64,000 nucleotides of DNA from Gemmatimonadales bacterium (GTDB taxonomy: Bacteria; Gemmatimonadota; Gemmatimonadetes; Gemmatimonadales; GWC2-71-9). A model generated the notes under the pieces. It saw nothing but the letters and a program-made list of their open reading frames with translations. It ran no database searches and was not told where the DNA came from. The stretch covers positions 2,307 through 66,306 of the forward strand of contig DATEGE010000143.1 of the NCBI GenBank assembly GCA_035280265.1, in the 5' to 3' direction. Both the position numbers and the translations under genes were made by a program. Of this stretch, positions 1,930 to 54,764 are shown piece by piece (the stretch's first letter is position 1; every line of letters begins with the position of its first letter).

Positions 1930-3113
1930 CCGATATCGCGTACCACCCCACCCGCCTCCGCGCGCTGCGCGACCAGTTCCGCGCGCTCCGGGCCGCCGAG
2001 TTCCCCTGGACCGCCGACACCGTCTACCTCAACAATGCCTCCATCGGTCCGATCCCCGAGCGCACACGTCGGGCCCTGGACGAATTCACTGCGAAGCGCA
2101 CCGCGCCGCATCTGCTACCTGACCGCGAGCTGCAGGCCGGCCTGCAGGCGGCCCGCGCCGCCGTGGCGGCATTGCTGAATGCCGAGCCGGCGGAGATCGC
2201 CCTCGCCACCAATACCAGCCACGGCTTGACCCTCGCCGCGCGCGCCCTGCCGCTCACGCGGGGCGACGTCGTGCTCGTCTCCGACCGCGAGTTCCCCGCG
2301 AACGTCTATCCCTGGCTGCTGCTGCGGAAGCAAGGCGTCGAGGTCGAGCTCGCGCCGTGCGTGCCCGAGGGCTGGCCGGACGAGGATTATCTCGTGGAAC
2401 GGCTGCACGACCCGCGCGTGCGGGTGCTGGCAGTGTCGTTCGTGCAGTTCTCGAACGGCTTCCGGGCCGATCTCGCGCGGCTGGGCGCGGCGTGCCGGGC
2501 CAACGGCACGTTCCTCGTGGTGGACGGGATCCAAGGCGTCGGCAACTCGGTGCTCGACCTGCGGGAAACCGCGGTCGACATCCTGGCGTGCGGCGGGCAG
2601 AAGTGGCTGCTGTCACCGTGGGGATCGGGGTTCATGTACGTGCGGCGCGAGCTGATTTCGGCGCTCGAGCCCGCGGTGACCGGTTGGATGGCGTTCGAGG
2701 GCACCGACGATTTCTCGCGGCTCACCGAGTACAACCCCACTTTCCGCCCCGACGCTCGTCGCTTCGAGATGGTGACGCTGCCGTTTCAGGATTTCTATGG
2801 CATGACCGCGTCGGTGGGCATGCTCACCGAGCTGGGCACAGACGACATCGCACAATACACGCGGACGCTGCACGAGCCGATGTTCCGGTGGGCCGACGAG
2901 AACGGCACTCGCGTCGCCTCGCCGCGTGAAGAGGCGCACCGCTCCGCAATCGTGTGTCTCGCGCCGACGCACCCGGCGGAAGCGTACCACGCGCTGAAGC
3001 GGGCGCACGTCGTCTGCTCGCTGCGCGAGGGCGCGATCCGCTTCGCGCCGCACTGCTACAATACGGTCGAAGAGATGGAGCGGGTGCTGGATGTGCTGGA
3101 TCAGCTAGAGTAG
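1926..3113 (+). CDS. class V aminotransferase / cysteine desulfurase-like PLP enzyme
   Basis: GTG 1926 overlaps the permease stop (GTGA). Motifs: VYLNNASIGP, VVDGIQGVG, ACGGQKWLLSPWGSGFMY (PLP-lysine context). Frame of ORF 1440..3113. Confidence 0.8.
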   Translation: MTDIAYHPTRLRALRDQFRALRAAEFPWTADTVYLNNASIGPIPERTRRALDEFTAKRTAPHLLPDRELQAGLQAARAAVAALLNAEPAEIALATNTSHGLTLAARALPLTRGDVVLVSDREFPANVYPWLLLRKQGVEVELAPCVPEGWPDEDYLVERLHDPRVRVLAVSFVQFSNGFRADLARLGAACRANGTFLVVDGIQGVGNSVLDLRETAVDILACGGQKWLLSPWGSGFMYVRRELISALEPAVTGWMAFEGTDDFSRLTEYNPTFRPDARRFEMVTLPFQDFYGMTASVGMLTELGTDDIAQYTRTLHEPMFRWADENGTRVASPREEAHRSAIVCLAPTHPAEAYHALKRAHVVCSLREGAIRFAPHCYNTVEEMERVLDVLDQLE

Positions 3114-3114
3114 G

Positions 3115-3197
3115 GCGTCATACGTTGCACGTCACACGTCCCACGAACGCTCAGCGCCTTCCGTGTGACATGCGACGTGCGATTTGTGACGTGCGTG
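3115..3197. repeat. inverted array of heptamer words (GTSNCAC / GTGNSAC) forming a hairpin between convergent genes
   Basis: 5' arm GCGTCATACGTTGCACGTCACACGTCCCACG, 3' arm CGTGTGACATGCGACGTGCGATTTGTGACGTGCGTG. Perfect 10-bp pairing GCACGTCACA (3127..3136) with TGTGACGTGC (3185..3194). Confidence 0.7.
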
Positions 3198-3209
3198 TAA
3201 GGAGAGGCG

Positions 3210-3863
3210 TCACGCCACGCGGTCCCGATGTCGATCGCCCCACGCCGCCCACCACACGAACAGCCAGCCGAACAGCAGTCCCCCGATCCCCAATGCCGTC
3301 GGCGTGGGCGGCGGCGGGCTGAACAGCGACGCCCCGTACGAGAGGATGAGGAACGCCATCAGCGCCCCGAGGCCATAGCGGCCCACGGCATCGCGCGCCC
3401 GCGTGGCTCTGAGGTAAATCCACAGGCCCGCGCCGAACATCGCCACTTCCACGAGCACCGTTCCCGCGACCGAGGTCCAGAGGCCGAGCCCCACCCGAGG
3501 GCCACCGGGGTAGAGCGGCATATCCGGGACGTGCGTGACGAAGTCGAGCACCCAATGGCTCACCACGAGCGCCGCAACGATCAATGCGGCGCGGGCGGAG
3601 CCGGTGCGCGCGCGGTACAGGAGCGCGAACAAGGCCGCCCACGCGAGCAGTGCCAGCAGACTGTGTGAGATGGGATACGAATCGAACGTCAGGTTGAGGA
3701 ATGGATTGAACCCGCCGGTGATGCGCACGCGCTCCCATCCCATCAAGACGAAGACAGGCCAGAGCAGGTCGGCCAGCGAGGCGGCGGCGAACAGCGTGCC
3801 GAGTGAGGTCTGCGGGGCGGCGCGCTTGGCGGCGAGCGCGACGGCGTAGTGGCCGATGAACAT
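3210..3863 (-). CDS. polytopic membrane protein, DUF457/YdjM-like membrane-bound metal-dependent hydrolase
   Basis: 217-aa ORF MFIGHYAVALAA...ISHSLLALL...VVSHWVLDFVTHVPD with several hydrophobic spans. The start lies 2 nt after the tyrS stop. Confidence 0.5.
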   Translation of the reverse strand: MFIGHYAVALAAKRAAPQTSLGTLFAAASLADLLWPVFVLMGWERVRITGGFNPFLNLTFDSYPISHSLLALLAWAALFALLYRARTGSARAALIVAALVVSHWVLDFVTHVPDMPLYPGGPRVGLGLWTSVAGTVLVEVAMFGAGLWIYLRATRARDAVGRYGLGALMAFLILSYGASLFSPPPPTPTALGIGGLLFGWLFVWWAAWGDRHRDRVA

Positions 3864-5201: not shown

Positions 5202-7388
5202 ATGGCATCCATCCCCGCGCCTCCCCCGTCCGCACCGCCCGTGGCGCTTCCCGGGCTACGCGGCTGGTGGCAGGACCCCACGCACCGCCGCCACACCATC
5301 GCCGTCGCGGTGCTGGCCTGCGCGTACGGCCTGGGGCTGTCGTACGGCGCTTGGACCCGTGTCTGCGCCGGCGAGCACTGCCCCAGCATCTCGCGCCTGT
5401 ACGCCAGCGGGAGCGGCGGCGGCGTGCAGGTGCAGACGTCCAAGGTGTTCGCCGCCGATGGCCGGCTGATCAGCGAGCTGGGCGCCGAGCGCCGCACCGT
5501 GCTGCCGCTCGCCGAGATTCCCCTCGCGGTGCGTCAGGCGTTCATCGCAACCGAGGACAAGCGCTTTTACGACCATCACGGCATCGACTACTGGCGCATC
5601 CTCGGCGCGATCAAGAACGACCTGCTGACGCTGAGCTTCGCGCAGGGCTTCTCGACCATCACGATGCAGTTGGCGCGCAACATCTTCCCGGAGGAGATCA
5701 GTCGTGAAAAGACGCTCACGCGCAAGCTGAAGGAAGCGCGTGTCGCCGCGGAGATCGAGCACAATTTTCCCAAGGACACGATCCTTCAGCTGTACCTGAA
5801 CCAGATCAACCTCGGCGCCGGCGCCCACGGCGTTGAGGCGGCGGCCCAGATCTACTTCGGCAAGCACGCGCAACAGTTGAACGTGGCGGAGGCTGCGACC
5901 CTCGCCGCGCTTCCCAAGCTGCCGGCGTTCTATAACCCGCGCACCCACCCGGAGCGCGCCGTCCGGCGCCGCAACGTGGTGCTCGGGTTGATGCACGAGC
6001 AGGGGTTCGTCACCGCCGAAGAAGCCGAGCTGTGGAAGGCCTACCCGCTCGTCCTCACGGGCAACCGCACGAACTACGGTGACGTCGCGCCGTACTTCGT
6101 CGAGTGGCTGCGGGTACAGCTGGACGCGCGCTTCGGACGCGATCTCTACGAAGGCGGGCTGCGCATCTATACCACGCTCGACCTCGACATGCAGGAGGCG
6201 GCGGAGCGGGCGCTGCAGTCACAGCTCGACGCCATCGAGGCCGGCGTGTACTCGAACGGCAAGTTCCCGGGGCGGACCACCTACCGCGAGTACATCGAGT
6301 CGGGGAAGGGACTGGGGGAGGACCACCCCTTCACCAACTATCTGCAGGGGGCGCTAGTAGCGCTGGACGCGAGCACGGGATACATCCGCGCGATGATCGG
6401 CGGCCGCGACTTCGACGATTCCAAGTACAACCGCGCCACCCAGGCGATGCGCCAGCCCGGGTCCACCTTCAAGCCGTTCGTCTACTCGGCCGCCGTGCGG
6501 GCCGGTCACCCGGTCACCGAGATTCTCGACGACTCGCCCCTCAACCCGCCGGTGATCCAGCTCGATTCGACGCTGTGGCAGCCCAAGGATGACGACGACA
6601 CTACCCTCGGGCTGATCCCGATGCGCGAGGGACTGTACCTGTCGCGCAACCTCGCGACCATCAAGCTCGGCATGGCGCTGGGGGAGCAGACGGTGATCGG
6701 CGAGGCGCGCCGCTACGGCATTACGACGCCCCTGCCGCCCTATCCGTCGATCCACATCGGTGCGCGCAGTGTGCGGCCTATCGAAATCATCGCGGCGTAC
6801 ACGTCGTTCGCCACGCTCGGCACGCGGGCGGAGCCCGTCGGCATCCTGCGCGTGGAAGACCGTCAAGGCAACATCCTGTGGCAACCCGCGATTCGGCGTG
6901 AGCCGGTGATGGATCCGGAGCACACCTGGCTCATGGTGGACATGATGAAGGATGTGATCCGGCACGGCACGGCATTCACCGCGGTGTGGAAGGCGGGCTT
7001 CACCCTCCCTGCGGCCGGGAAGACCGGTACCACCGACGACTACACCGACGCGTGGTTCATCGGCTACACGCCGGAGCTCGTCGCGGGGGCGTGGGTGGGG
7101 TATGACATCCCGCAGCGCATCCTCGATCACAACGCGGGCGGCGGCAGGATCGTCGCGCCCGCGTGGACGGCGTTCATGCGCGACGTATACGACCGCCGGC
7201 CCGCCCCGGCCGACTGGGTCCGCCCCGACTCGCTCATCACGCGGGAGGTCGACTGGTCGAACGGCTACCTCGCCACGCCGTTCTGCCCGCAGGCGGTGCG
7301 GCACTGGGACTGGTTCTATCCGGGCACCGAGCCATCGCAGGCCTGTCCCGTGCACACACCGTTCGGCGGCATCGGAGTGTCGCCGTGA
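5202..7388 (+). CDS. mrcA: class A penicillin-binding protein (transglycosylase/transpeptidase, PBP1A type)
   Basis: GT51 motifs RQAFIATEDKRFYDHHGID and ITMQLARN. Transpeptidase motifs QPGSTFKPFVY (SxxK) and AAGKTGTTDD (KTG). N-terminal TM segment. Confidence 0.93.
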   Translation: MASIPAPPPSAPPVALPGLRGWWQDPTHRRHTIAVAVLACAYGLGLSYGAWTRVCAGEHCPSISRLYASGSGGGVQVQTSKVFAADGRLISELGAERRTVLPLAEIPLAVRQAFIATEDKRFYDHHGIDYWRILGAIKNDLLTLSFAQGFSTITMQLARNIFPEEISREKTLTRKLKEARVAAEIEHNFPKDTILQLYLNQINLGAGAHGVEAAAQIYFGKHAQQLNVAEAATLAALPKLPAFYNPRTHPERAVRRRNVVLGLMHEQGFVTAEEAELWKAYPLVLTGNRTNYGDVAPYFVEWLRVQLDARFGRDLYEGGLRIYTTLDLDMQEAAERALQSQLDAIEAGVYSNGKFPGRTTYREYIESGKGLGEDHPFTNYLQGALVALDASTGYIRAMIGGRDFDDSKYNRATQAMRQPGSTFKPFVYSAAVRAGHPVTEILDDSPLNPPVIQLDSTLWQPKDDDDTTLGLIPMREGLYLSRNLATIKLGMALGEQTVIGEARRYGITTPLPPYPSIHIGARSVRPIEIIAAYTSFATLGTRAEPVGILRVEDRQGNILWQPAIRREPVMDPEHTWLMVDMMKDVIRHGTAFTAVWKAGFTLPAAGKTGTTDDYTDAWFIGYTPELVAGAWVGYDIPQRILDHNAGGGRIVAPAWTAFMRDVYDRRPAPADWVRPDSLITREVDWSNGYLATPFCPQAVRHWDWFYPGTEPSQACPVHTPFGGIGVSP

Positions 7389-7394
7389 GGGACG

Positions 7395-7485
7395 GGGGAC
7401 TAGGGACTAGGGACCGGGGGCTAGGGACTGGGCTAGGACTGGGTTTCCAAGACCCCTAGCCCCCGGTCCCTAGTCCCCAGTCCCC
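7395..7485. repeat. hairpin built from tandem GGGACTAG-like octamers and their complement
   Basis: 20-bp perfect core CTAGGGACCGGGGGCTAGGG (7407..7426) pairs with CCCTAGCCCCCGGTCCCTAG (7454..7473). It fills the spacer between the PBP stop (7388) and ATG 7487. Confidence 0.9.
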
Positions 7486-7486: not shown

Positions 7487-8683
7487 ATGCTCCGCATCCG
7501 CGCCCGCTCCGTACACCCCGTCACGGCGCCGCCCATCGAGGACGGCGCCGTTCTCATTGACGAGCGCGGGGTCATCGCCGCGCTGGGCTCCAATGGGAAC
7601 GTTCCCAGGCCCACGGACGCGCGGGCGCTCGATTTTCCCGACGCGGTCCTGATGCCCGGTCTCGTCAACACGCACACGCACCTCGAGCTCACTCATCTCG
7701 CCGGCAAGGACGACGAGCGCGACTTCGCCAAGTGGATTCGGACGCTGCGCGCCCTCAAGGACGCGACGACGCCCGACGAGTTCGCGCACGCGGCAGAGCA
7801 GGGAGTGCGAGATGCGTGGGCCGCCGGAGTCACGTGCGTCGCGGACACGGGAAGCACCGGAGCCCCCATCGAGGCGCTCGCCCGGCTCGGCGGCCGAGGC
7901 ATCTATTACCAAGAGGTGTTCGGCCCCGACCCCGCGAAATGCGGCGCCAGTATGGGTGAGCTCGAGCAGGCCGTGCGTCGGCTCAGACCATACTCATGCG
8001 CACGCGTGCGCTTCGGTCTATCGCCGCACGCGCCGTACACCGTGAGCGAGCCGCTGTACCGCGCCGTGGCCGACTACGCCGGGCGAGAGGCGTTGCCGGT
8101 CGCGGTGCATCTCGCGGAGTCACGCGAGGAAACCCAGCTCGTGCACGACGGTACGGGGCCGTTCGCCGACGCGCTGCGCGCCCGGGGCATCTCAGTGGCG
8201 GCGCACAACTGCTCACCGGTCCAGTATCTCTTGCGACTTTGCGACGTGGAACGTGCGACGCCGTTGCTTTGCATCCACTGCGTGCAGGTGGACCGGAACG
8301 ACGTCGAGCTACTGAAGCGGGCCGGCGTGAGCGTAGCCCACTGTCCCCGCTCGAACCACGTGCACCAGCACGGCGCGGCCCCCCTGGCGGCCTTTCGGGC
8401 GGCTGGGCTCGCGGTCGGCCTGGGCACCGATTCAATGGTGAGCGTCGGCGATATCAGTCTATGGGCGGAGGCCACAGCGGCGGGGCTCGTGGGAGAGGAC
8501 GCGTTGCGAATGCTGACGCTCGAAGGCGCGCGAGCGTTGGGATTGGAGGGCGAGATCGGCTCTCTGGAGGTCGGGAAACAGGCGGACCTGGCGGTGTTTG
8601 ATCGCTTTCCGTCCGACCGTCCGGCCGTCCGACCGTCCGACGCTCTTCTCACTGTCGTCGCCGGCCGGGTGGTTCACGGCTAG
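7487..8683 (+). CDS. amidohydrolase superfamily protein (nucleobase/aminofutalosine/MTA deaminase-like)
   Basis: Metal-ligand pattern VNTHTHLELT (HxH), AVHLAES, IHCVQV, GLGTDS. 398 aa. Confidence 0.8.
   Translation: MLRIRARSVHPVTAPPIEDGAVLIDERGVIAALGSNGNVPRPTDARALDFPDAVLMPGLVNTHTHLELTHLAGKDDERDFAKWIRTLRALKDATTPDEFAHAAEQGVRDAWAAGVTCVADTGSTGAPIEALARLGGRGIYYQEVFGPDPAKCGASMGELEQAVRRLRPYSCARVRFGLSPHAPYTVSEPLYRAVADYAGREALPVAVHLAESREETQLVHDGTGPFADALRARGISVAAHNCSPVQYLLRLCDVERATPLLCIHCVQVDRNDVELLKRAGVSVAHCPRSNHVHQHGAAPLAAFRAAGLAVGLGTDSMVSVGDISLWAEATAAGLVGEDALRMLTLEGARALGLEGEIGSLEVGKQADLAVFDRFPSDRPAVRPSDALLTVVAGRVVHG
8611..8642. repeat. four tandem GTCCGACN octamers inside the amidohydrolase CDS
   Basis: GTCCGACC GTCCGGCC GTCCGACC GTCCGACG, translated in frame as ...FPSDRPAVRPSDALL. 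Confidence 0.9.
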
Positions 8684-9153: not shown

Positions 9154-9169
9154 CACCAAGGAGATCTCC

Positions 9170-9874
9170 ATGATGAATCGCCCGCTCGTGTTGCTCGCCG
9201 TGTGTTGCCTGGGTGGGGTGCCCGCAGCGGCGCCTGGCCAGAGCACGCACAACGCCCTGACCCCCACGGAGAAGGCCGCCGGCTGGCGCCTCTTGTTCGA
9301 CGGCAAGACCACCTCGGGGTGGCGCGGCTGGAAGAAGGACTCGATGCCCGCGGGCTGGCAGGTCGTCGACGGCGAGCTGACCCGCGTGGCCGCGGCCGGC
9401 GATATCATGACGCGGGACAAGTACCGCGACTTCGAGCTCTCGCTGCAGTGGAACATCGCCCCGGGCGGCAACAGCGGAATCTTCTACCGGGCGAGCGAAG
9501 ACGACGACGCGATCTACTGGAGCGCTCCGGAAATGCAGGTGCTGGACGACGCCAGACATCCCGACGGGCAGTCGCGGCTCACGTCTGCGGGCGCGGACTA
9601 CGACATCTATCCCTCCCCAGCGGGCGTCGTGAAGCCGGCGGGTGAATGGAACCAGGTCCGGCTGGTGGTCAAGGGCAACCACGTGGAGCACTGGCTCAAC
9701 GGCGTGAAGGTGGTCGAATACGAATTGGGGAGCCCCGACTGGGAGGCGCGCGTCAAGGCGAGCAAGTTCGCGCCGCACGTCCATTACGGGCGCAATCGCG
9801 AGGGGTACGTCGGCCTGCAGGATCACGGCGACCGCGTGGCGTACCGCGACATCAAGATCCGGGTGCTGCCGTGA
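9170..9874 (+). CDS. exported DUF1080 (3-keto-disaccharide hydrolase family) protein
   Basis: Signal peptide MMNRPLVLLAVCCLGGVPAAAPGQ. WRLLFDGKTTSGWRGW ... GLQDHGDRVAYRDIKIRVL. AAGGAG SD at 9158..9163. Confidence 0.8.
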   Translation: MMNRPLVLLAVCCLGGVPAAAPGQSTHNALTPTEKAAGWRLLFDGKTTSGWRGWKKDSMPAGWQVVDGELTRVAAAGDIMTRDKYRDFELSLQWNIAPGGNSGIFYRASEDDDAIYWSAPEMQVLDDARHPDGQSRLTSAGADYDIYPSPAGVVKPAGEWNQVRLVVKGNHVEHWLNGVKVVEYELGSPDWEARVKASKFAPHVHYGRNREGYVGLQDHGDRVAYRDIKIRVLP

Positions 9875-11112
9875 GCGTCCGCGCCAAACTGTCGACGATG
9901 ATGTTCTTGCAGTTCTTCATCTGGGGCGCCTGGTACACCACCATCGCGGTGTACATGACCCACCACGGGATGGAGAAGCTGACGCACTGGCCCTATACGG
10001 TGAACCCGATCTCGGCCATCGTGGCGCCGTTTTTCCTGGGGCTCGTGGCCGACCGCTACTTTCCGACCGAGAAGGTGCTGGGCGTGCTTCATATACTGGG
10101 CGGCGTGGTGATGTTCATCGTGCCCCAGGCCACCGGCGCGCCGACCGCGTTCATTCTGCTGCTGCTGCTCTACAACCTCTGCTACATGCCGACCCTTGGT
10201 CTCGCCAACAGCCTGGCGTTCCATCACATCCAGTCGCAGGAGCAGCAGTTTCCGCTGATCCGCGTGTTCGGCACCATCGGTTGGATCGTGGCCGGGCTCT
10301 TCATTAGTTGGGTGCTCGGTCCCCTCGTGGGGACCGTCGCGGAGCAGACCCCGCTTCCCATTTACAGCACCGCCGTCGCGAGCGTGGTGCTGGGACTGTT
10401 CGCCTTCACGCTGCCGCACACGCCGCCGCCGGGCGCCGGGCAGCGCGTCTCACTGCGCAGCATCATCGGACTCGACGCGCTGGCGCAGCTCGGTGACCGC
10501 GCCTTCTATGTGTTCATTATCGCGTCGCTGCTGATCTGCATCCCGCTCGCCGCGTATTACAACTTCACGCAGATCTTCCTGGGTGACGCGGGAGTCACGA
10601 AGATCGCCGCGACGCAGGCGTGGGGCCAGATCTCCGAGACGGGATTCATGCTCCTCATGCCACTGTTTTTCGCGCGGCTGGGCGTGAAAAAAATGCTGCT
10701 CGTGGGCATGGGCGCGTGGGTGCTGCGCTACGCCCTCTTTGCCCTCGCGGCGCCGGCCGCGATCTTCCCGCTCATCTTCATCGGGATCCTGCTGCACGGC
10801 GTCTGCTACGACTTCTTCTTCGTGACGGGCCAGATCTACGTGGACAAGAAGTCGACCCCGGCCGTGCGCGGCCAGGCGCAGGGATTCCTCGTGCTCGTCA
10901 CCTACGGCGTTGGCATGCTGATCGGCGCGCAGGTGGCCGGGAACGTCTACAACCGGCTGCTCGGCGGCGCCACCGGCCTGACGCTGGCGCGTTGGCCCAG
11001 CTTCTGGGTGCTGCCGGCCGGTTTCGCCGCGCTGGTCCTGGTCTTTTTCGCCGCGCTGTTCCGCCCTGCGGCGGGGCCTGTGCGCGAGCCCAGCCCGGGC
11101 TCGGCGAGGTGA
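9871..11112 (+). CDS. MFS transporter, nucleoside:H+ symporter (NupG/XapB-like) family
   Basis: GTG 9871 overlaps the upstream stop (GTGA). FLQFFIWGAWYTT...YMPTLGLANS...FPLIRVFGTIGWIVAG closely parallels E. coli NupG as I recall it. Confidence 0.8.
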   Translation: MSVRAKLSTMMFLQFFIWGAWYTTIAVYMTHHGMEKLTHWPYTVNPISAIVAPFFLGLVADRYFPTEKVLGVLHILGGVVMFIVPQATGAPTAFILLLLLYNLCYMPTLGLANSLAFHHIQSQEQQFPLIRVFGTIGWIVAGLFISWVLGPLVGTVAEQTPLPIYSTAVASVVLGLFAFTLPHTPPPGAGQRVSLRSIIGLDALAQLGDRAFYVFIIASLLICIPLAAYYNFTQIFLGDAGVTKIAATQAWGQISETGFMLLMPLFFARLGVKKMLLVGMGAWVLRYALFALAAPAAIFPLIFIGILLHGVCYDFFFVTGQIYVDKKSTPAVRGQAQGFLVLVTYGVGMLIGAQVAGNVYNRLLGGATGLTLARWPSFWVLPAGFAALVLVFFAALFRPAAGPVREPSPGSAR

Positions 11113-11117
11113 TTCGG

Positions 11118-12455
11118 ATGCCTCGCAAGCGCATCACGAGACGCAAGTTCGTCAGCGAGCTGGGCGCGGGCGTCGCGTTCACGATCGTTCCGCGCCACGT
11201 GCTGGGTCGCGGGGTTCGGGCGCCGAGCGATAAGCTCAACGTGGCGTGCGTGGGCGTCGGGGGCATGGGGCGGAACGACGTGAAGGGGATGGAAGGCGAG
11301 AACATCTACGCGCTGTGCGACGTCGACTGGAAGGCGGCGGAGGACGCCTTTCAGACATACCCCAAGGCCAAACGATACAAAGACTACCGCGAGATGCTCG
11401 ATCGGGACTCGAAGAGCATCGATGCCATCACGGTCTCAACGCCCGATCACTCGCATGCGGCGGCCGGACTGCTGGCGATGAGGGCGGGCAAGCACACCTA
11501 CATCCAGAAGCCGCTGGCGCGGACCATGGGTGAGGTGCGTGCGCTGGCCGACTATGCGCGCGCCCATCCCAAGCTGATGACGCAGATGGGCAACCAGGGA
11601 CACGCTCGCGAAGGCACGCGCCAGCTCCGCGAGTGGGTGGAAGCGGGCGCCATCGGGACCGTGCGCGAGGTGCACTTCTGGACCAACCGCCCGATCTGGC
11701 CTCAGGCGATCGAGCGCCCGCTCGAGGAGTACTACGTCCCCGCCACGCTCGACTGGAACCTGTGGCTCGGCACCGCGGCCGAGCGGCCGTATCATCCGGC
11801 GTACGTGCCGTTCAAGTGGCGCGGCTTTTGGGACTTCGGCACCGGCGCGCTGGGCGACATGGCGTGTCATATCATGGATGCCGCATACTGGACACTCGAC
11901 CTTGGATTCGCGACCCGCATCGAGCCCGAGTCCACGCCGCTGTTCAAGGAGACGGCGCCTGCCGGGTCGCGCATCACGTACACGTTTGCCGCGAAAGGAA
12001 GCCGTCCTGAACTGAGGGTGGTGTGGCGCGATGGCAGCCTCTATCCGCCACGGCCGCCCGAGGTGACGGACGACGCGCCCTGGCCCCAGGACCGCGGCGG
12101 CGGCCAGCTGTGGATCGGCAGCGGCGGCAAACTCACCGCCGGAACGTACGGGGACGACCCAAAACTACTCGACCCCGCGAAGCAGGCGGAGATCACCGCG
12201 CACCCCCCGGCGCAGAAGTACGCACGCTCGCCGGGCGTGTATGCCGAGTGGATCGCCGCGTGTAAAAGTGGAGCGCCCGCCGGCTCGACGTTCGACGGGC
12301 ACGCCGGAGGGCTCACGTCCATGGTGCTGCTGGGTTGCCTGGCGGTGCGGCTGGGACGCACGCTCGAAATCGACCCGGCCGCGGGGCAGGTGACGAACCT
12401 CCGCGTTCCCGAAGAGTACATCCGGCCGACGTACCGATCCGGGTGGTCGCTGTAG
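11118..12455 (+). CDS. Tat-exported Gfo/Idh/MocA family oxidoreductase
   Basis: MPRKRITRRKFVSELGAGVAFTIVP (twin-arginine signal), then NVACVGVGGMGRNDV...ALCDVD Rossmann motif. Frame of ORF 10620..12455. Confidence 0.85.
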   Translation: MPRKRITRRKFVSELGAGVAFTIVPRHVLGRGVRAPSDKLNVACVGVGGMGRNDVKGMEGENIYALCDVDWKAAEDAFQTYPKAKRYKDYREMLDRDSKSIDAITVSTPDHSHAAAGLLAMRAGKHTYIQKPLARTMGEVRALADYARAHPKLMTQMGNQGHAREGTRQLREWVEAGAIGTVREVHFWTNRPIWPQAIERPLEEYYVPATLDWNLWLGTAAERPYHPAYVPFKWRGFWDFGTGALGDMACHIMDAAYWTLDLGFATRIEPESTPLFKETAPAGSRITYTFAAKGSRPELRVVWRDGSLYPPRPPEVTDDAPWPQDRGGGQLWIGSGGKLTAGTYGDDPKLLDPAKQAEITAHPPAQKYARSPGVYAEWIAACKSGAPAGSTFDGHAGGLTSMVLLGCLAVRLGRTLEIDPAAGQVTNLRVPEEYIRPTYRSGWSL

Positions 12456-12461
12456 CGCGCG

Positions 12462-13160
12462 ATGCAGGGACTGGCCGCGACGCTGACCGATCACCCGCTC
12501 ATCGCGCTGGTCACGCTGTTCGGGGCGGGTCTCGTGACGAGCCTCACGCCGTGCATCTACCCGATGATCCCCATCACTGCCGGCATTCTGTCGGGAACGA
12601 GTGCAGGCACGCCGTCGCGCGGGCGCACCGCGCGACTTACACTCACGTATGCCGTGGGCCTCGCGCTGTTTTACGCGATCCTGGGCCTCGTGGCCGGTCT
12701 GTCGGGCACGTTGTTCGGCACCGTGAGCGCGAACCCATGGGCCCGCTTCGCGATCGGGAACCTGCTGCTGCTCTTCGGCCTTGCCATGCTGGACGTGATC
12801 CCCGTGACGGCGCCGCAGCGCTTGATGCAATGGGCCTCGGGGTTGGGTGGCGGCTCGTACCCAGCGGTGTTTCTCCTCGGAGCGACGTCCGGGATCGTCG
12901 CGGCGCCGTGCGGGGCACCGGCGTTCGCGGCGGTGCTCACGTGGGTCGCGGCGACGCGGAGCGGATTGCTCGGCTTCGTGTACTTATTCGTGTTCTCCTT
13001 GGGGATGACGGCGCTGCTCGTGGTGGTCGGCCTGTTCTCGGGCAGTCTGGCCGCGCTGCCACGAGCCGGTCAGTGGATGGTGTGGGTCAAGAAACTCGCT
13101 GGCGTGGTGCTGCTCGGCATGGCGGAGTACTATTTCATACAGATGGGAAAGGTGCTGTGA
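12462..13160 (+). CDS. ccdA: cytochrome c biogenesis/thiol-disulfide transporter CcdA (DsbD core family)
   Basis: 232-aa polytopic protein with the two conserved Cys contexts LTPCIYPMIP and AAPCGAPAF. Confidence 0.85.
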   Translation: MQGLAATLTDHPLIALVTLFGAGLVTSLTPCIYPMIPITAGILSGTSAGTPSRGRTARLTLTYAVGLALFYAILGLVAGLSGTLFGTVSANPWARFAIGNLLLLFGLAMLDVIPVTAPQRLMQWASGLGGGSYPAVFLLGATSGIVAAPCGAPAFAAVLTWVAATRSGLLGFVYLFVFSLGMTALLVVVGLFSGSLAALPRAGQWMVWVKKLAGVVLLGMAEYYFIQMGKVL

Positions 13161-13648
13161 TGCGATACGGATGGGTCGCGGCCGCGTTGCTGTGGCCGGC
13201 CGTCGTCAGCGGCCAGGACGTCGGCCTGTCGCTGGGGACCCAGGCACCCGTGGTGAGCGTGCAAGATCTCGACGGCAAGACCGTCGACCTGGGGCGATAC
13301 ATCGGCAAGGGCCCGGTGTTGCTTGAGTTCTGGGCCACGTGGTGCCCGGTGTGCGCCGCACTCGAGCCGGCGCTCAAAGACGCGCACGCCCGATACGGCG
13401 CGGCGGTGCCGTTCGTGGCCATCGGCGTGGCCGTGAACGAGACGCCGGCGTCGATCCGGCGCCACCTCGCAAGCCACCCCTTACCGTTCCCGGTGCTGTA
13501 CGACGCGAGCGGCGCGGCAGTGCGGGCGTTCGAGGCGCCCACGACGTCGTACATCGTTGTGCTGGATGGAGCGGGGAAGGTCAGCTACACCGGCACCGGG
13601 TCCGACCAGGACGTCGCGGCGGCGCTGCGGCGCGTGGCGAGCCGGTAG
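13160..13648 (+). CDS. exported TlpA/ResA-like thioredoxin-fold thiol:disulfide oxidoreductase
   Basis: ATG 13160 overlaps the ccdA stop. MRYGWVAAALLWPAVVSGQ signal. FWATWCPVCAAL (WCxxC). Confidence 0.85.
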   Translation: MRYGWVAAALLWPAVVSGQDVGLSLGTQAPVVSVQDLDGKTVDLGRYIGKGPVLLEFWATWCPVCAALEPALKDAHARYGAAVPFVAIGVAVNETPASIRRHLASHPLPFPVLYDASGAAVRAFEAPTTSYIVVLDGAGKVSYTGTGSDQDVAAALRRVASR

Positions 13649-13675
13649 TGCTGAGGAAGGTCCGCACGTTGTAAT

Positions 13676-13832
13676 GTGCAGCGTGGGGGTGGGGCTAGGG
13701 CGCCTACACTCGGGGGCACACCGAAACCCGCACCCCGAACGGGAGACTGGCCAAGCCGGTTTCGCGTCCCGACTTCTGAGTTCGGGGCGCCCTCGCGTGT
13801 AAAGCGCCCGGCGCCCCACCCCCACGCTGCAC
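13676..13832. repeat. 157-nt multi-stem long hairpin in a convergent intergenic region
   Basis: Outer perfect 20-bp stem GTGCAGCGTGGGGGTGGGGC (13676..13695) with GCCCCACCCCCACGCTGCAC (13813..13832). Inner stems GGGCGC/GCGCCC and CCCCGAAC (13733..13740) with GTTCGGGG (13780..13787). Confidence 0.85.
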
Positions 13833-13873
13833 GAAGTCTTGTGGGACTATTCCCCTGCTGTGTCGGCCGCTAG

Positions 13874-14461
13874 TTACTCGGCCGGCTTCGGCGCGACGCG
13901 GTCGATCGCCGCCGCCAGGTCCTTGTACGACTGTGGGTCGATCTCCCGGAACGGCGTCATCCGGTACGCGATCTTGCCGTCCGGCCCCACCACAAACAGC
14001 GTCCGATTGTCGACGCCGTACTTGGCGCTACGGGCGCCGTAGGTCGTGCCGACGACGCCACCAGAATCGCTCGCGAACAGGATCGGCAATTCGTCATCGC
14101 GCGCCCATGCCGCGAGCGTGTCAGCGGCATCCACGCTGACGCCGATCGGCACCACCCCACGGCCATCGTGAAACAGCTGTGCGTACTGATCACGGTACGC
14201 ATGCATTTGGATCGTTCACCCTTTGGTGCGCGCCTTGTAGAAGAAGGCGAGCACCACCGTCTTCCCCTTGAAATCGCTTAGGTGGATCGGCGCCTTGAGG
14301 GTGCCGTAGCGCGTCGCGCCCGGCAGCGTGAAGTCGGGCGCCACCGCGCCGACCTGGAGCGGCTCGGGCTCCTTGGGGGTGGGCGCCTGCTGTGCCTGCA
14401 GGGTCGGCGCGACGAACGCGGCCACCAGCGGCAGCGCACGAGCGACGGTTGAGCAGCTCAT
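13874..14461 (-). CDS. exported BCP/PrxQ-type peroxiredoxin; candidate selenoprotein with in-frame TGA at 14216..14218 in place of the peroxidatic Cys
   Basis: Track ORFs 14216..14581 and 13874..14206 are in one frame, separated by TGA. Joined sequence ...KTVVLAFFYKARTKG[TGA]TIQMHAYRDQYAQL... matches the BCP active site FYPKAxTPGCTxQ. GGGAGG SD precedes ATG 14461. Signal peptide MSCSTVARALPLVAAFVAPTLQA. Confidence 0.6.
14180..14201 (-). promoter_or_regulatory. SECIS-like stem-loop downstream of the in-frame UGA
   Basis: mRNA U-GCGUAC-[CGUGAUCA]-GUACGC-A. A 7-bp stem and 8-nt loop containing GU. The loop begins about 21 nt after the UGA. Confidence 0.45.
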
Positions 14462-14472
14462 AGACCTCCCTT

Positions 14473-16077
14473 TCAGTCCTTGAGCGAATGGTAATTCACA
14501 TCCAGCACACGCAGCCGCTCGAGATGCGTGCTGAGCCGGGCGGTGAAGTCCGCAAAGTCCCGGCCCGCTTTCGGCGTCCACAGGACTTCAGCGAGCGCGC
14601 ACGCCCGCGGGAACGCCATGTACTCCACCCGCTTCGGATCTGGAATGTACTCCGTCCACACTTGTCCCTGCGACCCCAGCACGTGACGCGCTTCGGCGTC
14701 CGTGAGCGCTGCCGGGACCGGCTCATAGGAGTACACCGTATCGAGCGGCAGGTAGCCGCCGATCGCGAGGGGCTCGCTGGTCGTGTCGACGGACTGGTAG
14801 TGGTCGAAGTACGTATGTGACCCGGGCGCCATCACCACGTCGTGCCCGGCGCGCGCCGCGGCGATGCCACCGTCGGTCCCCCGCCACGACATGACGACCG
14901 CGTTGGGCGCAAGCCCGCCCTCGAGGATCTCATCCCAGCCCACCAGCCGGCGGCCGTGCGCCGTGAGGAACTCGTCCATGCGGCGCGTGAAGTAGCTCTG
15001 CAGCTCGTCCTCGTTCTTCAAGCCGAGCTCGCGGATGCGCGACTGCGCCAGCGCGCTCGCTTTCCATTGTTTCTTCGGCGCCTCGTCGCCCCCGATGTGG
15101 ATCCAGGGTCCGGGAAACAGCGCCATCACGGCGGTGAGCACGCTCTGATAGAACTTGATGGTGGGCTCGCCGGGGTTGAGGATGTTCTCGTCCACGCCCC
15201 AAGCGGTCCACACCGGCAACGTGTCCCCCGTGTTGCCGAGCTCGGGGTAGGACGCGATCGCCGCCTGCGAATGGCCCGGCATCTCGATCTCGGGCACGAT
15301 CGTAATGAAGCGTGGCTGCGCGTAGGCCACGATCTCGCGCACGTCGTCCTGAGTGTAGAACCCCCCGTGCGGCTGGCCGTCGAACCGCCACTTGGTCGAG
15401 TCGTCTTCGTCCGGCCGGCCGATGATGGTCTGCCGGCGCCACGCGCCGATCTGCGTGAAGCGTGGGTACTGCGGGATCTCGATGCGCCAGCCCTGATCTT
15501 CCGTCAGGTGCCAATGAAACCGGTTGAACTTATGGAGCGCCAGGAGGTCCAGGTACTTCTTCACGAACTCCTTGGGCATGAAATGGCGCCCCACGTCGAG
15601 GTGCATGCCACGCCAGCTGAACCGCGGGTAATCCTCGATGGACACGGCCGGGACGGTCCACGCCACGGCCGCGACCTTCGCTTGCCGGTAAATCGCGGGT
15701 GGCAGGAGCTGACGCAGCGTCTGGATCGCGTAGAACGCCCCGGCGGGCCGGCGCGCGCGGATTGTCACGCGCGCCGGGCTGACGTCGAGCCGATAGCCTT
15801 CGTCGCCCAGCATCGCGAGCGTCGAATCGAGGCGAATCGAGATCGTCCGAGCGCCACCTCCGGCTGGCGCGGTCGACGCCACGGTCAGGCGGAATCCGGT
15901 GGCGGGGTAGAGATAGTCGGCGAGCGTCCCGCCGAGCGGGCGACTCGCGGCGTCTGTCGTGATGACCGTCGAGGTGGTCAGCGTGAAGCTCCCCGAGCCT
16001 GGCGTCAAATGCACGGGCCGGGGAACGATTGCGAAACCGGAATCGAGCGCGAACGCGACCACGAGCGCGGCCAGCAT
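14473..16077 (-). CDS. beta-N-acetylhexosaminidase (GH20)
   Basis: IEDYPRFSWRGMHLDVGRHF, FNRFHWHLTEDQGWR, IEMPGHSQAA, IHIGGDEAPK. ATG 16077 overlaps the upstream stop (ATGA). Confidence 0.9.
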   Translation of the reverse strand: MLAALVVAFALDSGFAIVPRPVHLTPGSGSFTLTTSTVITTDAASRPLGGTLADYLYPATGFRLTVASTAPAGGGARTISIRLDSTLAMLGDEGYRLDVSPARVTIRARRPAGAFYAIQTLRQLLPPAIYRQAKVAAVAWTVPAVSIEDYPRFSWRGMHLDVGRHFMPKEFVKKYLDLLALHKFNRFHWHLTEDQGWRIEIPQYPRFTQIGAWRRQTIIGRPDEDDSTKWRFDGQPHGGFYTQDDVREIVAYAQPRFITIVPEIEMPGHSQAAIASYPELGNTGDTLPVWTAWGVDENILNPGEPTIKFYQSVLTAVMALFPGPWIHIGGDEAPKKQWKASALAQSRIRELGLKNEDELQSYFTRRMDEFLTAHGRRLVGWDEILEGGLAPNAVVMSWRGTDGGIAAARAGHDVVMAPGSHTYFDHYQSVDTTSEPLAIGGYLPLDTVYSYEPVPAALTDAEARHVLGSQGQVWTEYIPDPKRVEYMAFPRACALAEVLWTPKAGRDFADFTARLSTHLERLRVLDVNYHSLKD

Positions 16078-18353: not shown

Positions 18354-19093
18354 TGCTCGGAGAGCTCGCGAATCCAGATGTCTCGGTAGCGAACGGGGTT
18401 GCCGTGGTCCTGCAGAAAGAGGGGCAGTTTGTCGCCGTGCGGCTCGTAATGGGCGCGCCGGCCGTGGACCGTCCACCCGGTGATGACCGTGGCGTTCTGT
18501 ACCAGCACGCCGTTGTGGAACACGGTCACGCGGGCCGAGTCTCGCACGGCGCCGTCGGCCCTGAAGCGGGGACGGCGAAACACGATGTCGTACGTCTGCC
18601 ATTGCCCCGGTGGCCGGCTCGCGTTGACGAGCGGTGGGGTCTGTCCGTAGACCGCCGCGGCTTGGCCGTCGGCGTACGTGTCGTTGTGGTACGAATCGAG
18701 CACCTGGATCTCGTAGTGGCTCATCAAGAACACGCCGCTATTCCCGCGCTCTTGGCTATCGCCCTGGGGCGGGAACGGCGTCGCCCACTCGATATGCAGC
18801 TGCTGATCACCGAACCCCCGCTGCGTCGTGATCGCACCGCTCCCGGGCACGACCTCCATGTACCCGTCCTGCACCTTCCACTTCGCTGCGCCGCCGGACT
18901 CCGCTTGCCACGCCGCAAGGTCCTTCCCGTCGAACAACACGATCGCGTCGGACGGCGGCGACACCGGCGGGCGCTCTGACCCGGGATCGACGACGGCGGG
19001 ACGAGGTCGGTCGAGCGAATGGACGGGCCATTGTTGGGCGAGCATGGGTGCGGGCAGGAGGAGCGTGAGCAAGACTGCCCTCAGGGCTTCCAA
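18350..19093 (-). CDS. exported DUF1080 (3-keto-disaccharide hydrolase family) protein
   Basis: ...LRAVLLTLLLPAPMLAQQ signal, LFDGKDLAAWQ, FLQDHGNPVRYRDIWIREL. Start uncertain: TTG 19093 chosen because it gives a signal peptide. Confidence 0.7.
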   Translation of the reverse strand: MEALRAVLLTLLLPAPMLAQQWPVHSLDRPRPAVVDPGSERPPVSPPSDAIVLFDGKDLAAWQAESGGAAKWKVQDGYMEVVPGSGAITTQRGFGDQQLHIEWATPFPPQGDSQERGNSGVFLMSHYEIQVLDSYHNDTYADGQAAAVYGQTPPLVNASRPPGQWQTYDIVFRRPRFRADGAVRDSARVTVFHNGVLVQNATVITGWTVHGRRAHYEPHGDKLPLFLQDHGNPVRYRDIWIRELSEQ

Positions 19094-22627: not shown

Positions 22628-22642
22628 GGTCGGTAACGTCGC

Positions 22643-23562
<920 letters not shown>

Positions 23563-23563
<1 letters not shown>

Positions 23564-54759: not shown

Positions 54760-54764
54760 GGCAG

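Follow-up and report, generated by a model that had tools for sequence, protein, structure and literature searches.

Word hairpins and unpaired arrays of the window

In the window, the whole 64,000-nt stretch of Gemmatimonadales DNA that was analyzed, the entire spacer between the stop codon of the PBP1A gene (TGA, 7386-7388) and the ATG of the downstream amidohydrolase gene (7487) is occupied by a hairpin, termed hairpin B (7389-7485), which was the starting observation of this study. Its arms (7395-7426 and 7454-7485) are 32 nt each, 97% complementary and 27 nt apart, and consist of GGGRCTA heptamers; TRF detected period-7 arrays in both of them (AGGGACT, 7.4 copies, 7388-7437; CCCCAGT, 3.6 copies, 7461-7485). 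An initial annotation of this DNA had reported a perfect 20-bp core at 7407-7426/7454-7473 and a 3' arm ending 1 nt before the ATG. The core was seen both in the sequence and by inverted-repeat analysis, and the position of the arm end was confirmed. It had also been stated that no room is left for an SD, which is true but not special to the hairpin, as the 5-14-nt spacers of hairpin-less relatives are also without an SD. As RNA, hairpin B folds with -78.7 kcal/mol (z = -6.85; none of 200 shuffles was as good), and as DNA with -42.8 kcal/mol (z = -7.64).

The same construction was said to recur elsewhere in the window. We read and scored the other listed loci and found the bulk of them clearly paired (3116-3145/3162-3191, 23399-23431/23532-23556, 27565-27589/27607-27647, 51724-51755/51779-51809, and 54765-54785/54806-54847). 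Pairing is weaker at 46737-46766/46808-46841 and at 24316-24346/24436-24461, the latter with a 90-nt interior, and the array at 42583-42608, listed as unpaired, proved to be so. Three more unpaired octamer arrays (8609-8641, 32642-32672, and 49790-49815) had been missed, and the inventory of the window now stands at about eight word hairpins and four unpaired arrays. Six to seven of the nine long inverted repeats of the window are word hairpins, and their RNA stems range from -43 to -90 kcal/mol. TRF assigned a period of 7 to the hairpins or pairs A, B, F, G, and H and to the array at 42583; unit lengths of 8, 10, and 11 nt occur as well. The unpaired arrays are not hidden hairpins, since on self-folding they performed no better than shuffles.

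Hairpin A (3113-3200; CGTCACA/CGTTGCA heptamer arms, dG -43) lies between two convergent genes, which encode an aminotransferase (gene end at 3113) and a YdjM-like protein (gene end at 3210). Hairpin D (23399-23556; GTCGGACN octamer arms with a structured interior of ~100 nt, dG -90) occupies the spacer from the stop codon of a minus-strand gene (23563-24411) to the ATG (23398) of the next minus-strand gene. The two GGGRYTA heptamer arrays of pair F (24316-24461) flank the start codon at 24411 and the twin-arginine signal peptide of a minus-strand TIM-barrel gene. Hairpin E (27541-27660, dG -86) is located upstream of an HNH endonuclease gene and downstream of a conserved promoter-like TTGCC-N17-TAGCAT; its upper stem is formed by GGTGGAGGNN decamer arrays, and its stem base (cgtggccgtcc/ggcggccacg) is found in relatives as a plain hairpin with a T run. 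Hairpin G (46735-46847; GTTGTCC/GGAYNAC heptamer arms, dG -48) stands ~20 nt 3' of the stop codon of a minus-strand gene (46868-47719) and is followed by a canonical terminator-like hairpin with a T run (46544-46524). Hairpin I (54763-54847; GGTGGAGGNN decamer arms of 2.3 and 4.3 copies, dG -55) is placed directly 3' of the M50 peptidase stop codon (54757-54759) and precedes the promoter-like GTATTGCGTAAG...TATCTTTG belonging to a conserved gene for 94 aa (54906-55190).

Other elements are translated. Hairpin H (51724-51809, minus strand; GGAACGC heptamer arms, dG -50) lies within the mltG coding region, where it is located, in frame, in the n-region of the lipoprotein signal peptide; it begins 8 nt past the mltG ATG (51814-51812), which overlaps the upstream stop codon as ATGA. 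Array C (8609-8641, plus strand; four copies of CCGTCCGA) encodes a loop of the amidohydrolase ~14 codons ahead of its C-terminal strand. The minus-strand array at 32642-32672 (GTCGGACN octamer, 3.9 copies) encodes, within a histidine kinase gene, the loop GRTVGQSDNRT that follows the HisKA H-box helix, and the one at 49790-49815 (minus strand; GTCGGACN octamer, 3.2 copies) makes up the last 10 codons of chorismate mutase, stopping 2 nt short of a GTGA stop/start overlap with an RlmI-like methyltransferase gene. The remaining unpaired array (42583-42608, minus strand; CGGGATG heptamer, 3.7 copies) occupies the 37-nt spacer that separates an alcohol dehydrogenase gene (ATG at 42575) from the stop codon of an SDR gene (42613). 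This array, the array at 49790, and hairpins B and D all end 0-7 nt ahead of start codons. The suggested association with exported proteins has two cases behind it, and in one of these the hairpin is simply translated as a portion of the signal-peptide n-region.

Conservation at gene junctions and divergence between strains

We compared ~140 related loci, among them the orthologous spacers of hairpin B. All close relatives are Gemmatimonadales/Gemmatimonadota MAGs, and the genes flanking the hairpins are syntenic housekeeping genes. Hairpins are kept at the same gene junctions in many species with changing words, copy numbers and loops; it is the structure, not the sequence, that persists. At the PBP1A junction, 22 orthologs carry a hairpin built of GGGGYTN, GGTGYYN, or GGTRAGC words, and the junction is empty (5-14-nt spacer) in ~10 close relatives, about one third, which are scattered over the tree. 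At the M50 junction, a hairpin was found in 33 of 35 distinct orthologous spacers, with five word families represented. At the mltG site, a hairpin is retained in 24 of 25 distinct sequences, and all relatives but one have the GCGGANN family there. The arms of this hairpin covary among the orthologs, and six different spacings, from 42 to 153 nt and each a multiple of 3, separate the mltG start from the lipobox Cys codon. The orthologs of site A have the CGTSACA word family in most relatives with varying copy number, those of site G have ATCCGT-type hairpins, and those of array C have four-copy octamer or decamer arrays at the same position with the frame kept.

A comparison of strains, which the initial annotation had proposed, revealed real variation. 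Among 10 close pairs (98-99.9% identical), the hairpins were ~9-10 times more divergent than the rest of the sequence (10.3% vs. 1.1%). Between the loci L084 and L085, whose flanks are identical, the unit number differs by two, and one arm shows a periodic substitution that extends over two units. Arms may be unequal, with three vs. seven units in L090, as in hairpin I of the window, and at site E the plain hairpin of the relatives corresponds to the decamer-expanded stem of the window. Strains only 1.3% apart carry different word families at one site. Divergent patches at two sites reach ~50 nt into the non-repeat flanks, which points to recombination or assembly chimeras rather than to in-place change. 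In one population (99.7-99.9% identity), the hairpins were stable except for two SNPs, and no copy-number variation was found within it across three independent assemblies. This stability suggests that slippage, if any, is not very frequent.

Arm matching and word vocabulary

The matching of the two arms was assessed by several measures. The proportion of paired cells was 95.4%, compared to 83% in shuffles (none of 500 as high), and the covariation score was 0.355, compared to 0.138 in shuffles and at most 0.09 in slid controls. In-register complementarity between the arms (0.90) exceeded the periodic identity within an arm (0.82). The fold energies of the sense and antisense strands showed no difference at either the PBP1A site (p = 0.17) or the M50 site (p = 0.43), and G.T and A.C mismatches numbered 44 and 35, respectively (p = 0.37), G:U thus not being favoured. 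The equal strand energies and the lack of a G:U excess argue for a DNA-level rather than a strand-specific RNA signal.

In the window and 80 loci (1.34 Mb), 45 paired arrays were counted, 41 of them with period 7, against a single one in a first-order Markov control. The claim that each locus has a different word was overstated: words do differ, but the vocabulary is small and common to non-homologous sites and genomes. All four octamer arrays of the window use GTCGGACN and both decamer hairpins use GGTGGAGGNN, and GGGRYTA occurs twice, in agreement with the earlier assignment of 24316-24461 to the word family of hairpin B. GGGGCTN and GGTGYCN were found at both the PBP1A and the M50 peptidase junctions, and GGTGGAGG at two loci of the window and in the amidohydrolase coding array of relatives. 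Across 64 kb of the genome and the flanks of two genes in relatives, the words form degenerate families with a restricted, shared vocabulary. Background k-mer abundance was rejected as its source, as outside the arrays GGGGCTA and GGGACTA rank with the rarest 7-mers of like composition (background ratio 0.08 for GGGGCTA). A CsrA-type GGA motif as the common denominator was dismissed because orthologous hairpins use words without GGA, and a G-quadruplex because it fits only the GGGG words. Nor does an always 5' position of the G-rich arm hold as a polarity relative to transcription, since the property is strand-symmetric; about 10 of 14 independent sites have a G-rich 5' arm, which is not significant.

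Known element classes and the origin of the hairpins

Several known classes were considered and rejected. At the gathering score, Rfam gave no match over the whole window, which speaks against a known structured RNA, and a tRNA/tmRNA scan of the window found none. Integron attC sites were discarded because the hairpin ends are without RYYYAAC...GTTRRRY boxes and the neighbours are syntenic housekeeping genes. Hairpins A, G, and I resemble intrinsic terminators in being GC-rich stem-loops just 3' of stop codons, but the stems lack a T run and are 2-4 times longer, and several elements lie between translationally coupled genes or within coding regions. The absence of a U tract, already pointed out in the initial annotation, was borne out by a terminator scan that called no word hairpin, and no T run is visible in the sequence. 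Stems of the "I-shaped" type without a U tract count among the intrinsic terminators in high-GC bacteria; the relatives use ordinary terminators of a hairpin and a T run, and the genome encodes Rho.

REP, BIME, and REPIN elements are abundant and extragenic, and they form stable RNA stem-loops able to stabilize upstream mRNA. Like them, the word hairpins are palindromic, are found at the ends of genes, in many cases where neighbours converge or are co-transcribed, and lack target-site duplication. However, the REPs of a genome have a common 20-40-nt consensus and a linked RAYT gene, whereas here there is no common consensus, the arms are internally tandem-repetitive, and some elements reside within coding regions (hairpin H, translated in frame, and the arrays at 8609, 32642, and 49790). 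The earlier statement that no single REP/MITE consensus exists was upheld: where two hairpins have a word in common, as E and I or B and F do, their loops, arm lengths, and variable positions are still not the same, and other hairpins use unrelated words. No RAYT or Y1 transposase gene was found among the genes of the window. A MITE origin was rejected because orthologous sites with and without the element, compared at B, H, and I, had no duplicated flank. We found no literature linking Gemmatimonas to REP-type repeats.

The closest known systems are the STRR hairpins of cyanobacteria and the TAACTGA heptamer arrays. Knowledge of the cyanobacterial STRR tandem-heptamer hairpins dates back to about 1990, and to our knowledge they were never explained; the consensus of the 3' arm of hairpin B, CCCCAGT, is identical to the STRR1 unit. 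In heterocyst-forming cyanobacteria, STRRs are dispersed tandem 7-bp units, mostly intergenic, and arrays combined with their complements fold into hairpins that separate co-transcribed genes, hupS-hupL being one example; their function is unknown, with transcript stability or translational coupling having been proposed (PMC2670836). The elements described here likewise have head-to-tail units of ~7 bp in at least three copies, and an array with its inverted complement forms a hairpin between genes. Their host is not a heterocyst-forming cyanobacterium but a member of the Gemmatimonadota whose genome has 68% GC. Besides 7-nt units there are units of 8, 10, and 11 nt, and the words sampled here appear to form degenerate families instead of a few fixed heptamers. 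Turnover at orthologous sites, covariation of arms, in-frame residence in coding regions, and hypervariability among strains further set them apart, and in the accessible STRR papers we found no description of any of these four features. TAACTGA direct-repeat arrays of two to six heptamer units occur in marine Beggiatoaceae, Cyanobacteria, and Bacteroidetes, are missing from the orthologous spacers of close relatives, and have no known function (MacGregor 2015, PMC4679880). That system relies on one specific AT-rich word, which is repeated directly in nearly all cases and inverted in one (PMC4679880), whereas here many GC-rich words are used and most arrays are paired into long hairpins.

We propose, with a probability of roughly one half, that the word hairpins are self-renewing tandem-repeat palindromes, the Gemmatimonadales counterpart of STRR hairpins, and neither the copies of one mobile element nor classical terminators. 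A hairpin at a fixed gene junction is inherited vertically, with arms that are arrays of a 7-11-nt word and its complement. Units are gained and lost separately in each arm, and the arms stay ~90% complementary via changes on both sides. Arrays and hairpins are tolerated where the sequence is unconstrained, i.e., in stop-to-start spacers, gene 3' ends, the signal-peptide n-region, and protein loops and tails, and the coding arrays are always in frame and conserved in place. Our results largely support the earlier suggestion that a generating process, and not a single mobile sequence, is behind the hairpins. Array expansion with palindromic copying is favoured by the inheritance at fixed junctions, the change in place, the expansion of the stem at site E, the lone unpaired arrays, the unit differences, and the absence of a consensus and of target-site duplications.

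Under this proposal, replication slippage would expand and re-homogenize the words, and the arms would be kept matched by intrastrand template switching (quasipalindrome correction), selection for pairing, or both. Deletion across the stem would remove hairpins and leave empty sites, and alleles would spread between strains by recombination. In E. coli models, template switching at quasipalindromes perfects imperfect inverted repeats, and slipped-strand mispairing alters the unit number of short tandem repeats. Both processes together predict co-evolving arms without strand-specific signals and homogenized arrays, and we infer that they act at the word hairpins. They are known as single-locus hotspots, and we know of no description of them as a genome-wide source of long-lived, lineage-specific hairpins. 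Any RNA effects would be secondary: the stems would block 3' exonucleases and serve as RNase III substrates, and those at junctions would hide the downstream start codon unless opened by ribosomes of the upstream gene, with downstream expression then depending on translational coupling. Some observations stand against this proposal. Purely local slippage would not predict a restricted vocabulary common to non-homologous sites and genomes, and in a coding region the slippage of an 8- or 10-nt unit must pass frameshift intermediates. All data are metagenome assemblies, and repeats and hairpins are spots where assemblers err. No enzyme or repair defect accounting for the restriction to this lineage was identified, nor was the structure-specific enzyme considered in the initial annotation found. 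We regard as doubtful a reading in which a lineage-specific DNA-level process actively writes and maintains the elements, either through highly efficient copying of one arm from the other where forks stall or hairpins induce breaks, or through an unrecognized structure- or array-specific enzyme. The palindrome would then be inherited as a structure whose sequence is rewritten from a small shared vocabulary, and it would be a local hot spot of turnover and recombination, even within essential genes such as mltG.

Selection on RNA structure is a possible, though not a probable, explanation. The transcript would need a strong stem at the junctions, as a 3'-end stabilizer, an RNase III site, a terminator without a U tract, or a device drawing stop and start codons together and coupling downstream to upstream translation, and tandem words would be the easiest mutational route to a long stem. 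The retention of hairpins in almost every relative at the M50 and mltG sites despite complete word turnover looks more like selection for function than neutrality, and the compensatory covariation of the arms agrees with it. So do the non-random positions: hairpins B and D begin 0-7 nt past stop codons and end 0-3 nt before start codons, and hairpin I lies between a stop codon and the next promoter. Similar roles were proposed for the STRR hairpins (PMC2670836) and for heptamer arrays 1 nt before start codons (PMC4679880). On the other hand, there is neither a strand-specific signature in energies or G.U pairs nor a U tract, and a canonical terminator follows hairpin G. The PBP1A junction is without a hairpin in about one third of the close relatives, same-word unpaired arrays in protein loops have no RNA structure, and a stem of -50 kcal/mol located 8 nt past the mltG start is hard to see as beneficial. 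Arrays of binding sites, with one unit per protein or domain and an inverted copy modulating access, would account for the restricted vocabulary that background k-mer frequency leaves unexplained and for arrays adjoining start codons, as with the TAACTGA arrays and their proposed translational regulator (PMC4679880). The factor could, for example, be a nucleoid protein or a protein of the cold-shock, S1, or KH type, or it could be RecBCD/AddAB with the words serving as a Chi-like signal. For the latter, GGTGGAGG equals a Haemophilus Chi variant, and the G-rich 5' arms at 10 of the 14 independent sites would be in the active Chi orientation towards a break at the centre. We consider this very unlikely, given the many unrelated words (GGGGCTN, GGTGYCN, GGGAGCR, GTCGGACN, GCGGANN, CGTSACA, TCAATGC), the change of words at a site where the hairpin remains, and the insignificant polarity bias; no candidate protein was identified.

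Mobile palindromes of the REPIN/MITE type, each word family being moved by a RAYT or an IS200/IS605 TnpA and inserting without target duplication at gene ends, are unlikely. They would explain presence/absence polymorphism at orthologous sites, the same word families at non-homologous sites and in different genomes, and the different families at one site in strains 1.3% apart; the lack of target-site duplication is compatible with Y1 transposases (IS200/IS605). However, there is no master sequence, as copies with the same word share neither loops, arm lengths nor variable positions, and no transposase or Y1 domain is encoded among the genes of the window. Site-specific families are kept across many species (CGTSACA at A and GCGGANN at H), unit numbers change in place, site E represents an expansion within a pre-existing stem, replaced patches take in non-repeat flanks, and elements reside in frame within coding regions. 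Mis-joining of related strains at repeats by metagenome assemblers could be the source of both the hypervariability and the word switching, and it would fit the N run that L004 has at hairpin E between two copies of a 55-nt duplication, a duplicated segment at hairpin I in L101, and the divergent patches extending into flanks. Yet independent assemblies of the same population match base for base at hairpins A, B, and I and array C, save for the two SNPs, and the sample sets L093-L098, L101-L104, L105/L106, and L112/L113 each agree internally. With reading frames always preserved and hairpins present in MAGs from many studies, an artefact is hardly credible as the explanation.

That an unrelated phylum of uncultured soil bacteria, for which related assemblies are available by the hundreds, has the STRR architecture turns it into a comparative problem. 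If the cause is mutational, the loci would be natural reporters of slippage and template switching in unculturable bacteria and would supply protein loops and signal peptides with variation. If it is selection, the hairpins would be post-transcriptional devices in wide use at the translationally coupled junctions of a lineage poor in SDs. In practical terms, word hairpins are likely to break contigs and to cause gene starts to be miscalled in Gemmatimonadota MAGs, and they are usable as strain markers.

The core of hairpin B had also been described as rich in CTAG, and indeed 6 of the 28 CTAG tetranucleotides of the window fall in this hairpin. From composition, 188 occurrences would be expected in the window, and 50 from a Markov model. 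The eight hairpins, which make up 1.5% of the window, contain 9 of the 28.

Word hairpins and unpaired arrays in the window

The spacer between the PBP1A stop codon (TGA 7386-7388) and the amidohydrolase start codon (ATG 7487) consists wholly of hairpin B, as claimed in the initial annotation. Its 32-nt arms (7395-7426 and 7454-7485), spaced by 27 nt and 97% complementary, are both period-7 arrays (AGGGACT x7.4 and CCCCAGT x3.6, by TRF). The fold energy was -78.7 kcal/mol for the RNA (z -6.85); for the DNA it was -42.8 kcal/mol (z -7.64), and none of 200 shuffles equaled either value. The seven other named hairpins, A (3113-3200), D (23399-23556), pair F (24316-24461), E (27541-27660), G (46735-46847), H (51724-51809) and I (54763-54847), were as described, with arms of tandem words and their complements and fold energies of -43 to -90 kcal/mol. 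A named array that had been called unpaired (42583-42608) was confirmed as such, and TRF revealed three unpaired octamer arrays that had been missed (8609-8641, 32642-32672 and 49790-49815); the self-folding of the unpaired arrays was no better than that of shuffles. Like B, hairpin D occupies the whole spacer between a stop and a start codon, with its arm ending at 23399 and the next gene starting at 23398, which places five of the 12 window elements exactly at translationally coupled junctions.

Word hairpins account for 6-7 of the nine long inverted repeats of the window. In the window and 80 related loci, 45 arrays with an inverted partner were found, compared to one in a Markov control; word hairpins thus far exceed chance expectation, and they are not confined to the window. 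A scan of the window detected no T run 3' of any hairpin, in agreement with the claimed lack of a U tract, and Rfam and tRNA scans gave no match in the window. The remark that hairpin B is rich in the usually avoided CTAG also held: the window has just 28 copies of this tetranucleotide, compared to 188 predicted by composition and 50 by a Markov model, which marks strong avoidance, and nine of the 28 copies lie in the eight word hairpins, six of them in B. A perfect 20-nt inverted repeat at 13676-13695 and 13813-13832 (GTGCAGCGTGGGGGTGGGGC) is intergenic and not tandem-repetitive; its GC-rich interior of 117 nt has stems of its own and no Rfam match, and the stretch 13648-13883 does not align with the closest relative (L001). 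The TRF arrays at 36311-37179 (periods 3, 6, 9 and 15) are not word hairpins but coding repeats of the plus-strand gene 35269-37272, whose product is NYN/OST-HTH-like and has a long, RG/P-rich tail of low complexity.

The PBP1A protein search yielded 80 loci, all from Gemmatimonadales/Gemmatimonadota MAGs (54-95% amino-acid identity), and gene order is well conserved across the related loci. The flanking genes have ordinary housekeeping functions (tyrS, PBP1A, amidohydrolase, argR, argG, argH, rho, ruvX-like, mltG and M50 peptidase, among others), and a transposase was not detected in this set. Word hairpins are mainly a feature of the clade of close relatives of the window, where their density is ~50 per Mb, compared to 0-4 per Mb in more distant Gemmatimonadaceae; in a second data set they made up 66 of 139 long inverted repeats, compared to one of 16 in unrelated contigs, the densities and the 66/139 counts including orthologous copies of the same sites. 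In the window (9154-24750), L001 and others, argR and argG are separated by ~15 kb of genes, sugar-oxidoreductase and transporter genes among them, whereas the two are adjacent in several relatives (compared: L004, L028-L030, L034 and L035), indicating an insertion or deletion polymorphism.

Orthologous sites and arrays inside genes

At the PBP1A junction, 22 relatives carry a hairpin of 41-164 nt that runs from the stop codon to 1-3 nt before the start codon, with the words GGGGYTN, GGTGYYN, GGTRAGC or a CAAGT type, whereas about ten relatives of the same clade have a spacer of 5-14 nt with neither a hairpin nor an SD. Presence, absence and word type are scattered on the PBP1A tree. The convergent site 3113-3210 holds CGTSACA/CGTTGCA-family hairpins of variable copy number in most relatives, and other hairpins or none in a few. 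For the M50 junction, the peptidase was used to scan metagenomes, which yielded independent replicates. Of 35 distinct spacers, 33 have a hairpin (-20 to -81 kcal/mol) right after the stop codon, in five word families (GGTGGAGGNN; GGGAGCR; GGTGYCN; GGGGCTN; and GGCCGGTGAAA plus GGGGAAG); two are empty, and in one just the 3' arm is left. The adjacent plus-strand gene 54906-55190 encodes an unusually conserved 94-residue protein with no Pfam match and its own promoter-like element; it is 85-98% identical across relatives, compared to just 65-74% for the M50 peptidase. Two relatives (L084:5084-5153 and L085:5070-5132) have an AT-richer TCAATGC/CATTGAG hairpin of up to 8-10 units where the window has none, so the phenomenon is not confined to GC-rich words.

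Hairpin H (51724-51809) lies within mltG. A GCGGANN-family hairpin is present at this site in all relatives except one. Across 25 distinct sequences, mltG starts with the NTG of an NTGA motif that overlaps the upstream stop codon. From there to the lipobox Cys codon, the distance is 42, 111, 114, 120, 150 or 153 nt, each value divisible by 3, and the 42-nt distance belongs to the single relative without a hairpin. The hairpin is therefore translated, and inserts 23-37 residues into the signal-peptide n-region. The rho, ruvX-like and mltG genes share one strand; the overlap of the ruvX-like stop and mltG start (window 51812-51815; near position 8385 in L084-L136) is present in all relatives, with ATG, GTG and TTG each used as a start codon.

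An amidohydrolase loop is encoded by the array 8609-8641. Four copies of an octamer or decamer are found at this position in nearly all relatives, and the region is conserved in length. The loop peptide (e.g., PSTALHRPPPPSTA) is a plain three-frame reading of the decamer, and the repeat is therefore a DNA feature rather than a protein feature. The array 32642-32672 encodes the loop following the H-box helix of a histidine kinase, which is variable among relatives; its word also occurs there in L045. The array 49790-49815 encodes the final ten residues of chorismate mutase and stops 2 nt short of a GTGA overlap.

Turnover of the hairpins and matching of the arms

Evidence that the hairpins probably evolve in place comes from sequence comparison at several sites. 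At site E (27541-27660), relatives have a plain GC hairpin with a T run, just 3' of a conserved promoter-like TTGCC-N17-TAGCAT; the window retains the base of this stem, and the upper stem is made of GGTGGAGG decamer arrays. Unit numbers are often unequal between arms (3 and 7 in L090; 2.3 and 4.3 in the window). In L084 and L085, the TCAATGC hairpin has identical flanks and differs in that two units are inserted and, in one arm, every second unit carries a substitution. The region 27500-27700 and its counterparts in L061, L064, L057, L060, L049 and L051 share, in this order, TTGCC-N17-TAGCAT, the immediately adjoining GC hairpin and T run, GGGAGAG and an HNH endonuclease gene (27682-28230). 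This conserved element resembles a 5' leader, an attenuator or a small RNA; in the window, most of the T run is gone.

The arms remain matched. In an alignment of 18 hairpins at the mltG site, 95.4% of cells were paired, compared to 83% in shuffles (0/500), with two-sided changes in six pairs; the covariation score was 0.355, compared to 0.138 for shuffles and at most 0.09 for slid controls. Mean in-register complementarity was 0.90, with some ascertainment bias from choosing the best register, compared to 0.82 for periodic identity within arms and 0.75 for the best shifted register.

Across ten assembly pairs of 98-99.9% identity, divergence was 10.3% in hairpins and 1.1% elsewhere; the comparison of strains proposed in the initial annotation therefore revealed genuine variation. 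At the mltG site and again at the M50 site, L084 and L085, 1.3% apart, carry different word families. Two of the divergent patches reach ~50 nt into non-repeat flanks, a pattern that points to recombination between alleles or, with lower probability, to chimeric assembly. In the window's own population (four independent contigs, 99.7-99.9% identity), hairpins A, B and I and array C (8609-8641) were unchanged except for two SNPs in the 5' arm of B. Turnover is thus fast on the scale of ~1% divergence, and below the switching rates of contingency loci. Word hairpins seem to cause gaps or duplications in MAG assemblies: at the site of hairpin E, L004:19260-19350 has an N run between copies of a duplicated 55 nt, and at that of hairpin I, L101:11400-11530 has a duplicated 85-nt segment. 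Another kind of unstable repeat is seen near position 16700 of L088 and L089 (99.6% identical genomes), where a 48-nt indel lies beside a coding (GGGGGGGCN) 9-mer array.

Origin of the word hairpins and related repeats

The best-supported explanation is that a word hairpin is a self-renewing tandem-repeat palindrome. Slippage would expand and homogenize the words, and the arms would be kept complementary by arm-to-arm templated copying (quasipalindrome correction), by selection for pairing, or by both. Hairpins could be lost through deletion and alleles carried between strains through recombination, with purifying selection restricting the elements to unconstrained sequence and in-frame lengths. 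Given the stem strengths, the hairpins may also act on RNA: they could shield it from exonucleases, be cut by RNase III, or hide the start codon until upstream ribosomes open the stem.

Selection for an RNA structure is an unlikely alternative overall. It would account for the near-universal retention at two sites, but loss is frequent at the PBP1A site, some elements lie in coding sequence, and no RNA-strand signature was detected when sense and antisense folding were compared at the PBP1A (p = 0.17) and M50 (p = 0.43) sites or in sense-strand mismatches (44 G.T and 35 A.C, p = 0.37). Such symmetric pairing is as expected under DNA-level maintenance or strict Watson-Crick selection. The G-rich arm comes first in 55 of 55 orthologs at the two best-sampled sites, compared to only ~10 to 4 among independent sites; as a sign of gene direction this was discarded, the property being invariant under reverse complementation. 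Less probable still are mobile REPIN/MITE-like families, to which the presence/absence differences and a shared vocabulary would point: the word families are site-specific, changes occur in place, there is no master sequence, and no transposase was found among the flanking genes. Membership in REP/REPIN, MITE, attC, intrinsic terminator or Rfam families failed in each case on the defining features tested, and with it the ordinary REP/MITE family that the initial annotation had weighed against its reading. That the words are protein-binding arrays appears improbable, and that the hairpins are an assembly artefact very improbable.

The initial annotation's interpretation, a generating process rather than one mobile sequence, is partly supported; its claim of a different word at each locus goes too far. 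GGGGCTN and GGTGYCN each occur at both the PBP1A and M50 junctions, GTCGGACN at four loci of the window and, in several relatives, at the amidohydrolase site, and GGTGGAGG in two window hairpins and the amidohydrolase array of other genomes. Background 7-mer frequency was rejected as the source: with arrays masked, few 7-mers of like composition are as rare as GGGGCTA and GGGACTA (ratios 0.08 and 0.18) in the 1.84 Mb of the window and related loci, whereas GGTGGAG is the commonest of the 42 7-mers that share its composition (ratio 2.6). The rarity of GGGGCTA and GGGACTA agrees with the strong avoidance of CTAG.

A literature search combining Gemmatimonas with "repetitive extragenic palindromic" found no paper. 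Word hairpins are a real, non-trivial class of element, of a type already known from elsewhere yet unexplained. The closest known objects are the cyanobacterial STRR repeats, 7-bp tandem units capable of forming hairpins between genes such as hupS/hupL and without an assigned function (PMC2670836). Also near in type are the TAACTGA heptamer arrays of Beggiatoaceae, Cyanobacteria and Bacteroidetes, which in most cases stop 1 nt short of a start codon and are missing from the orthologous spacers of relatives (PMC4679880; PMC4853749).
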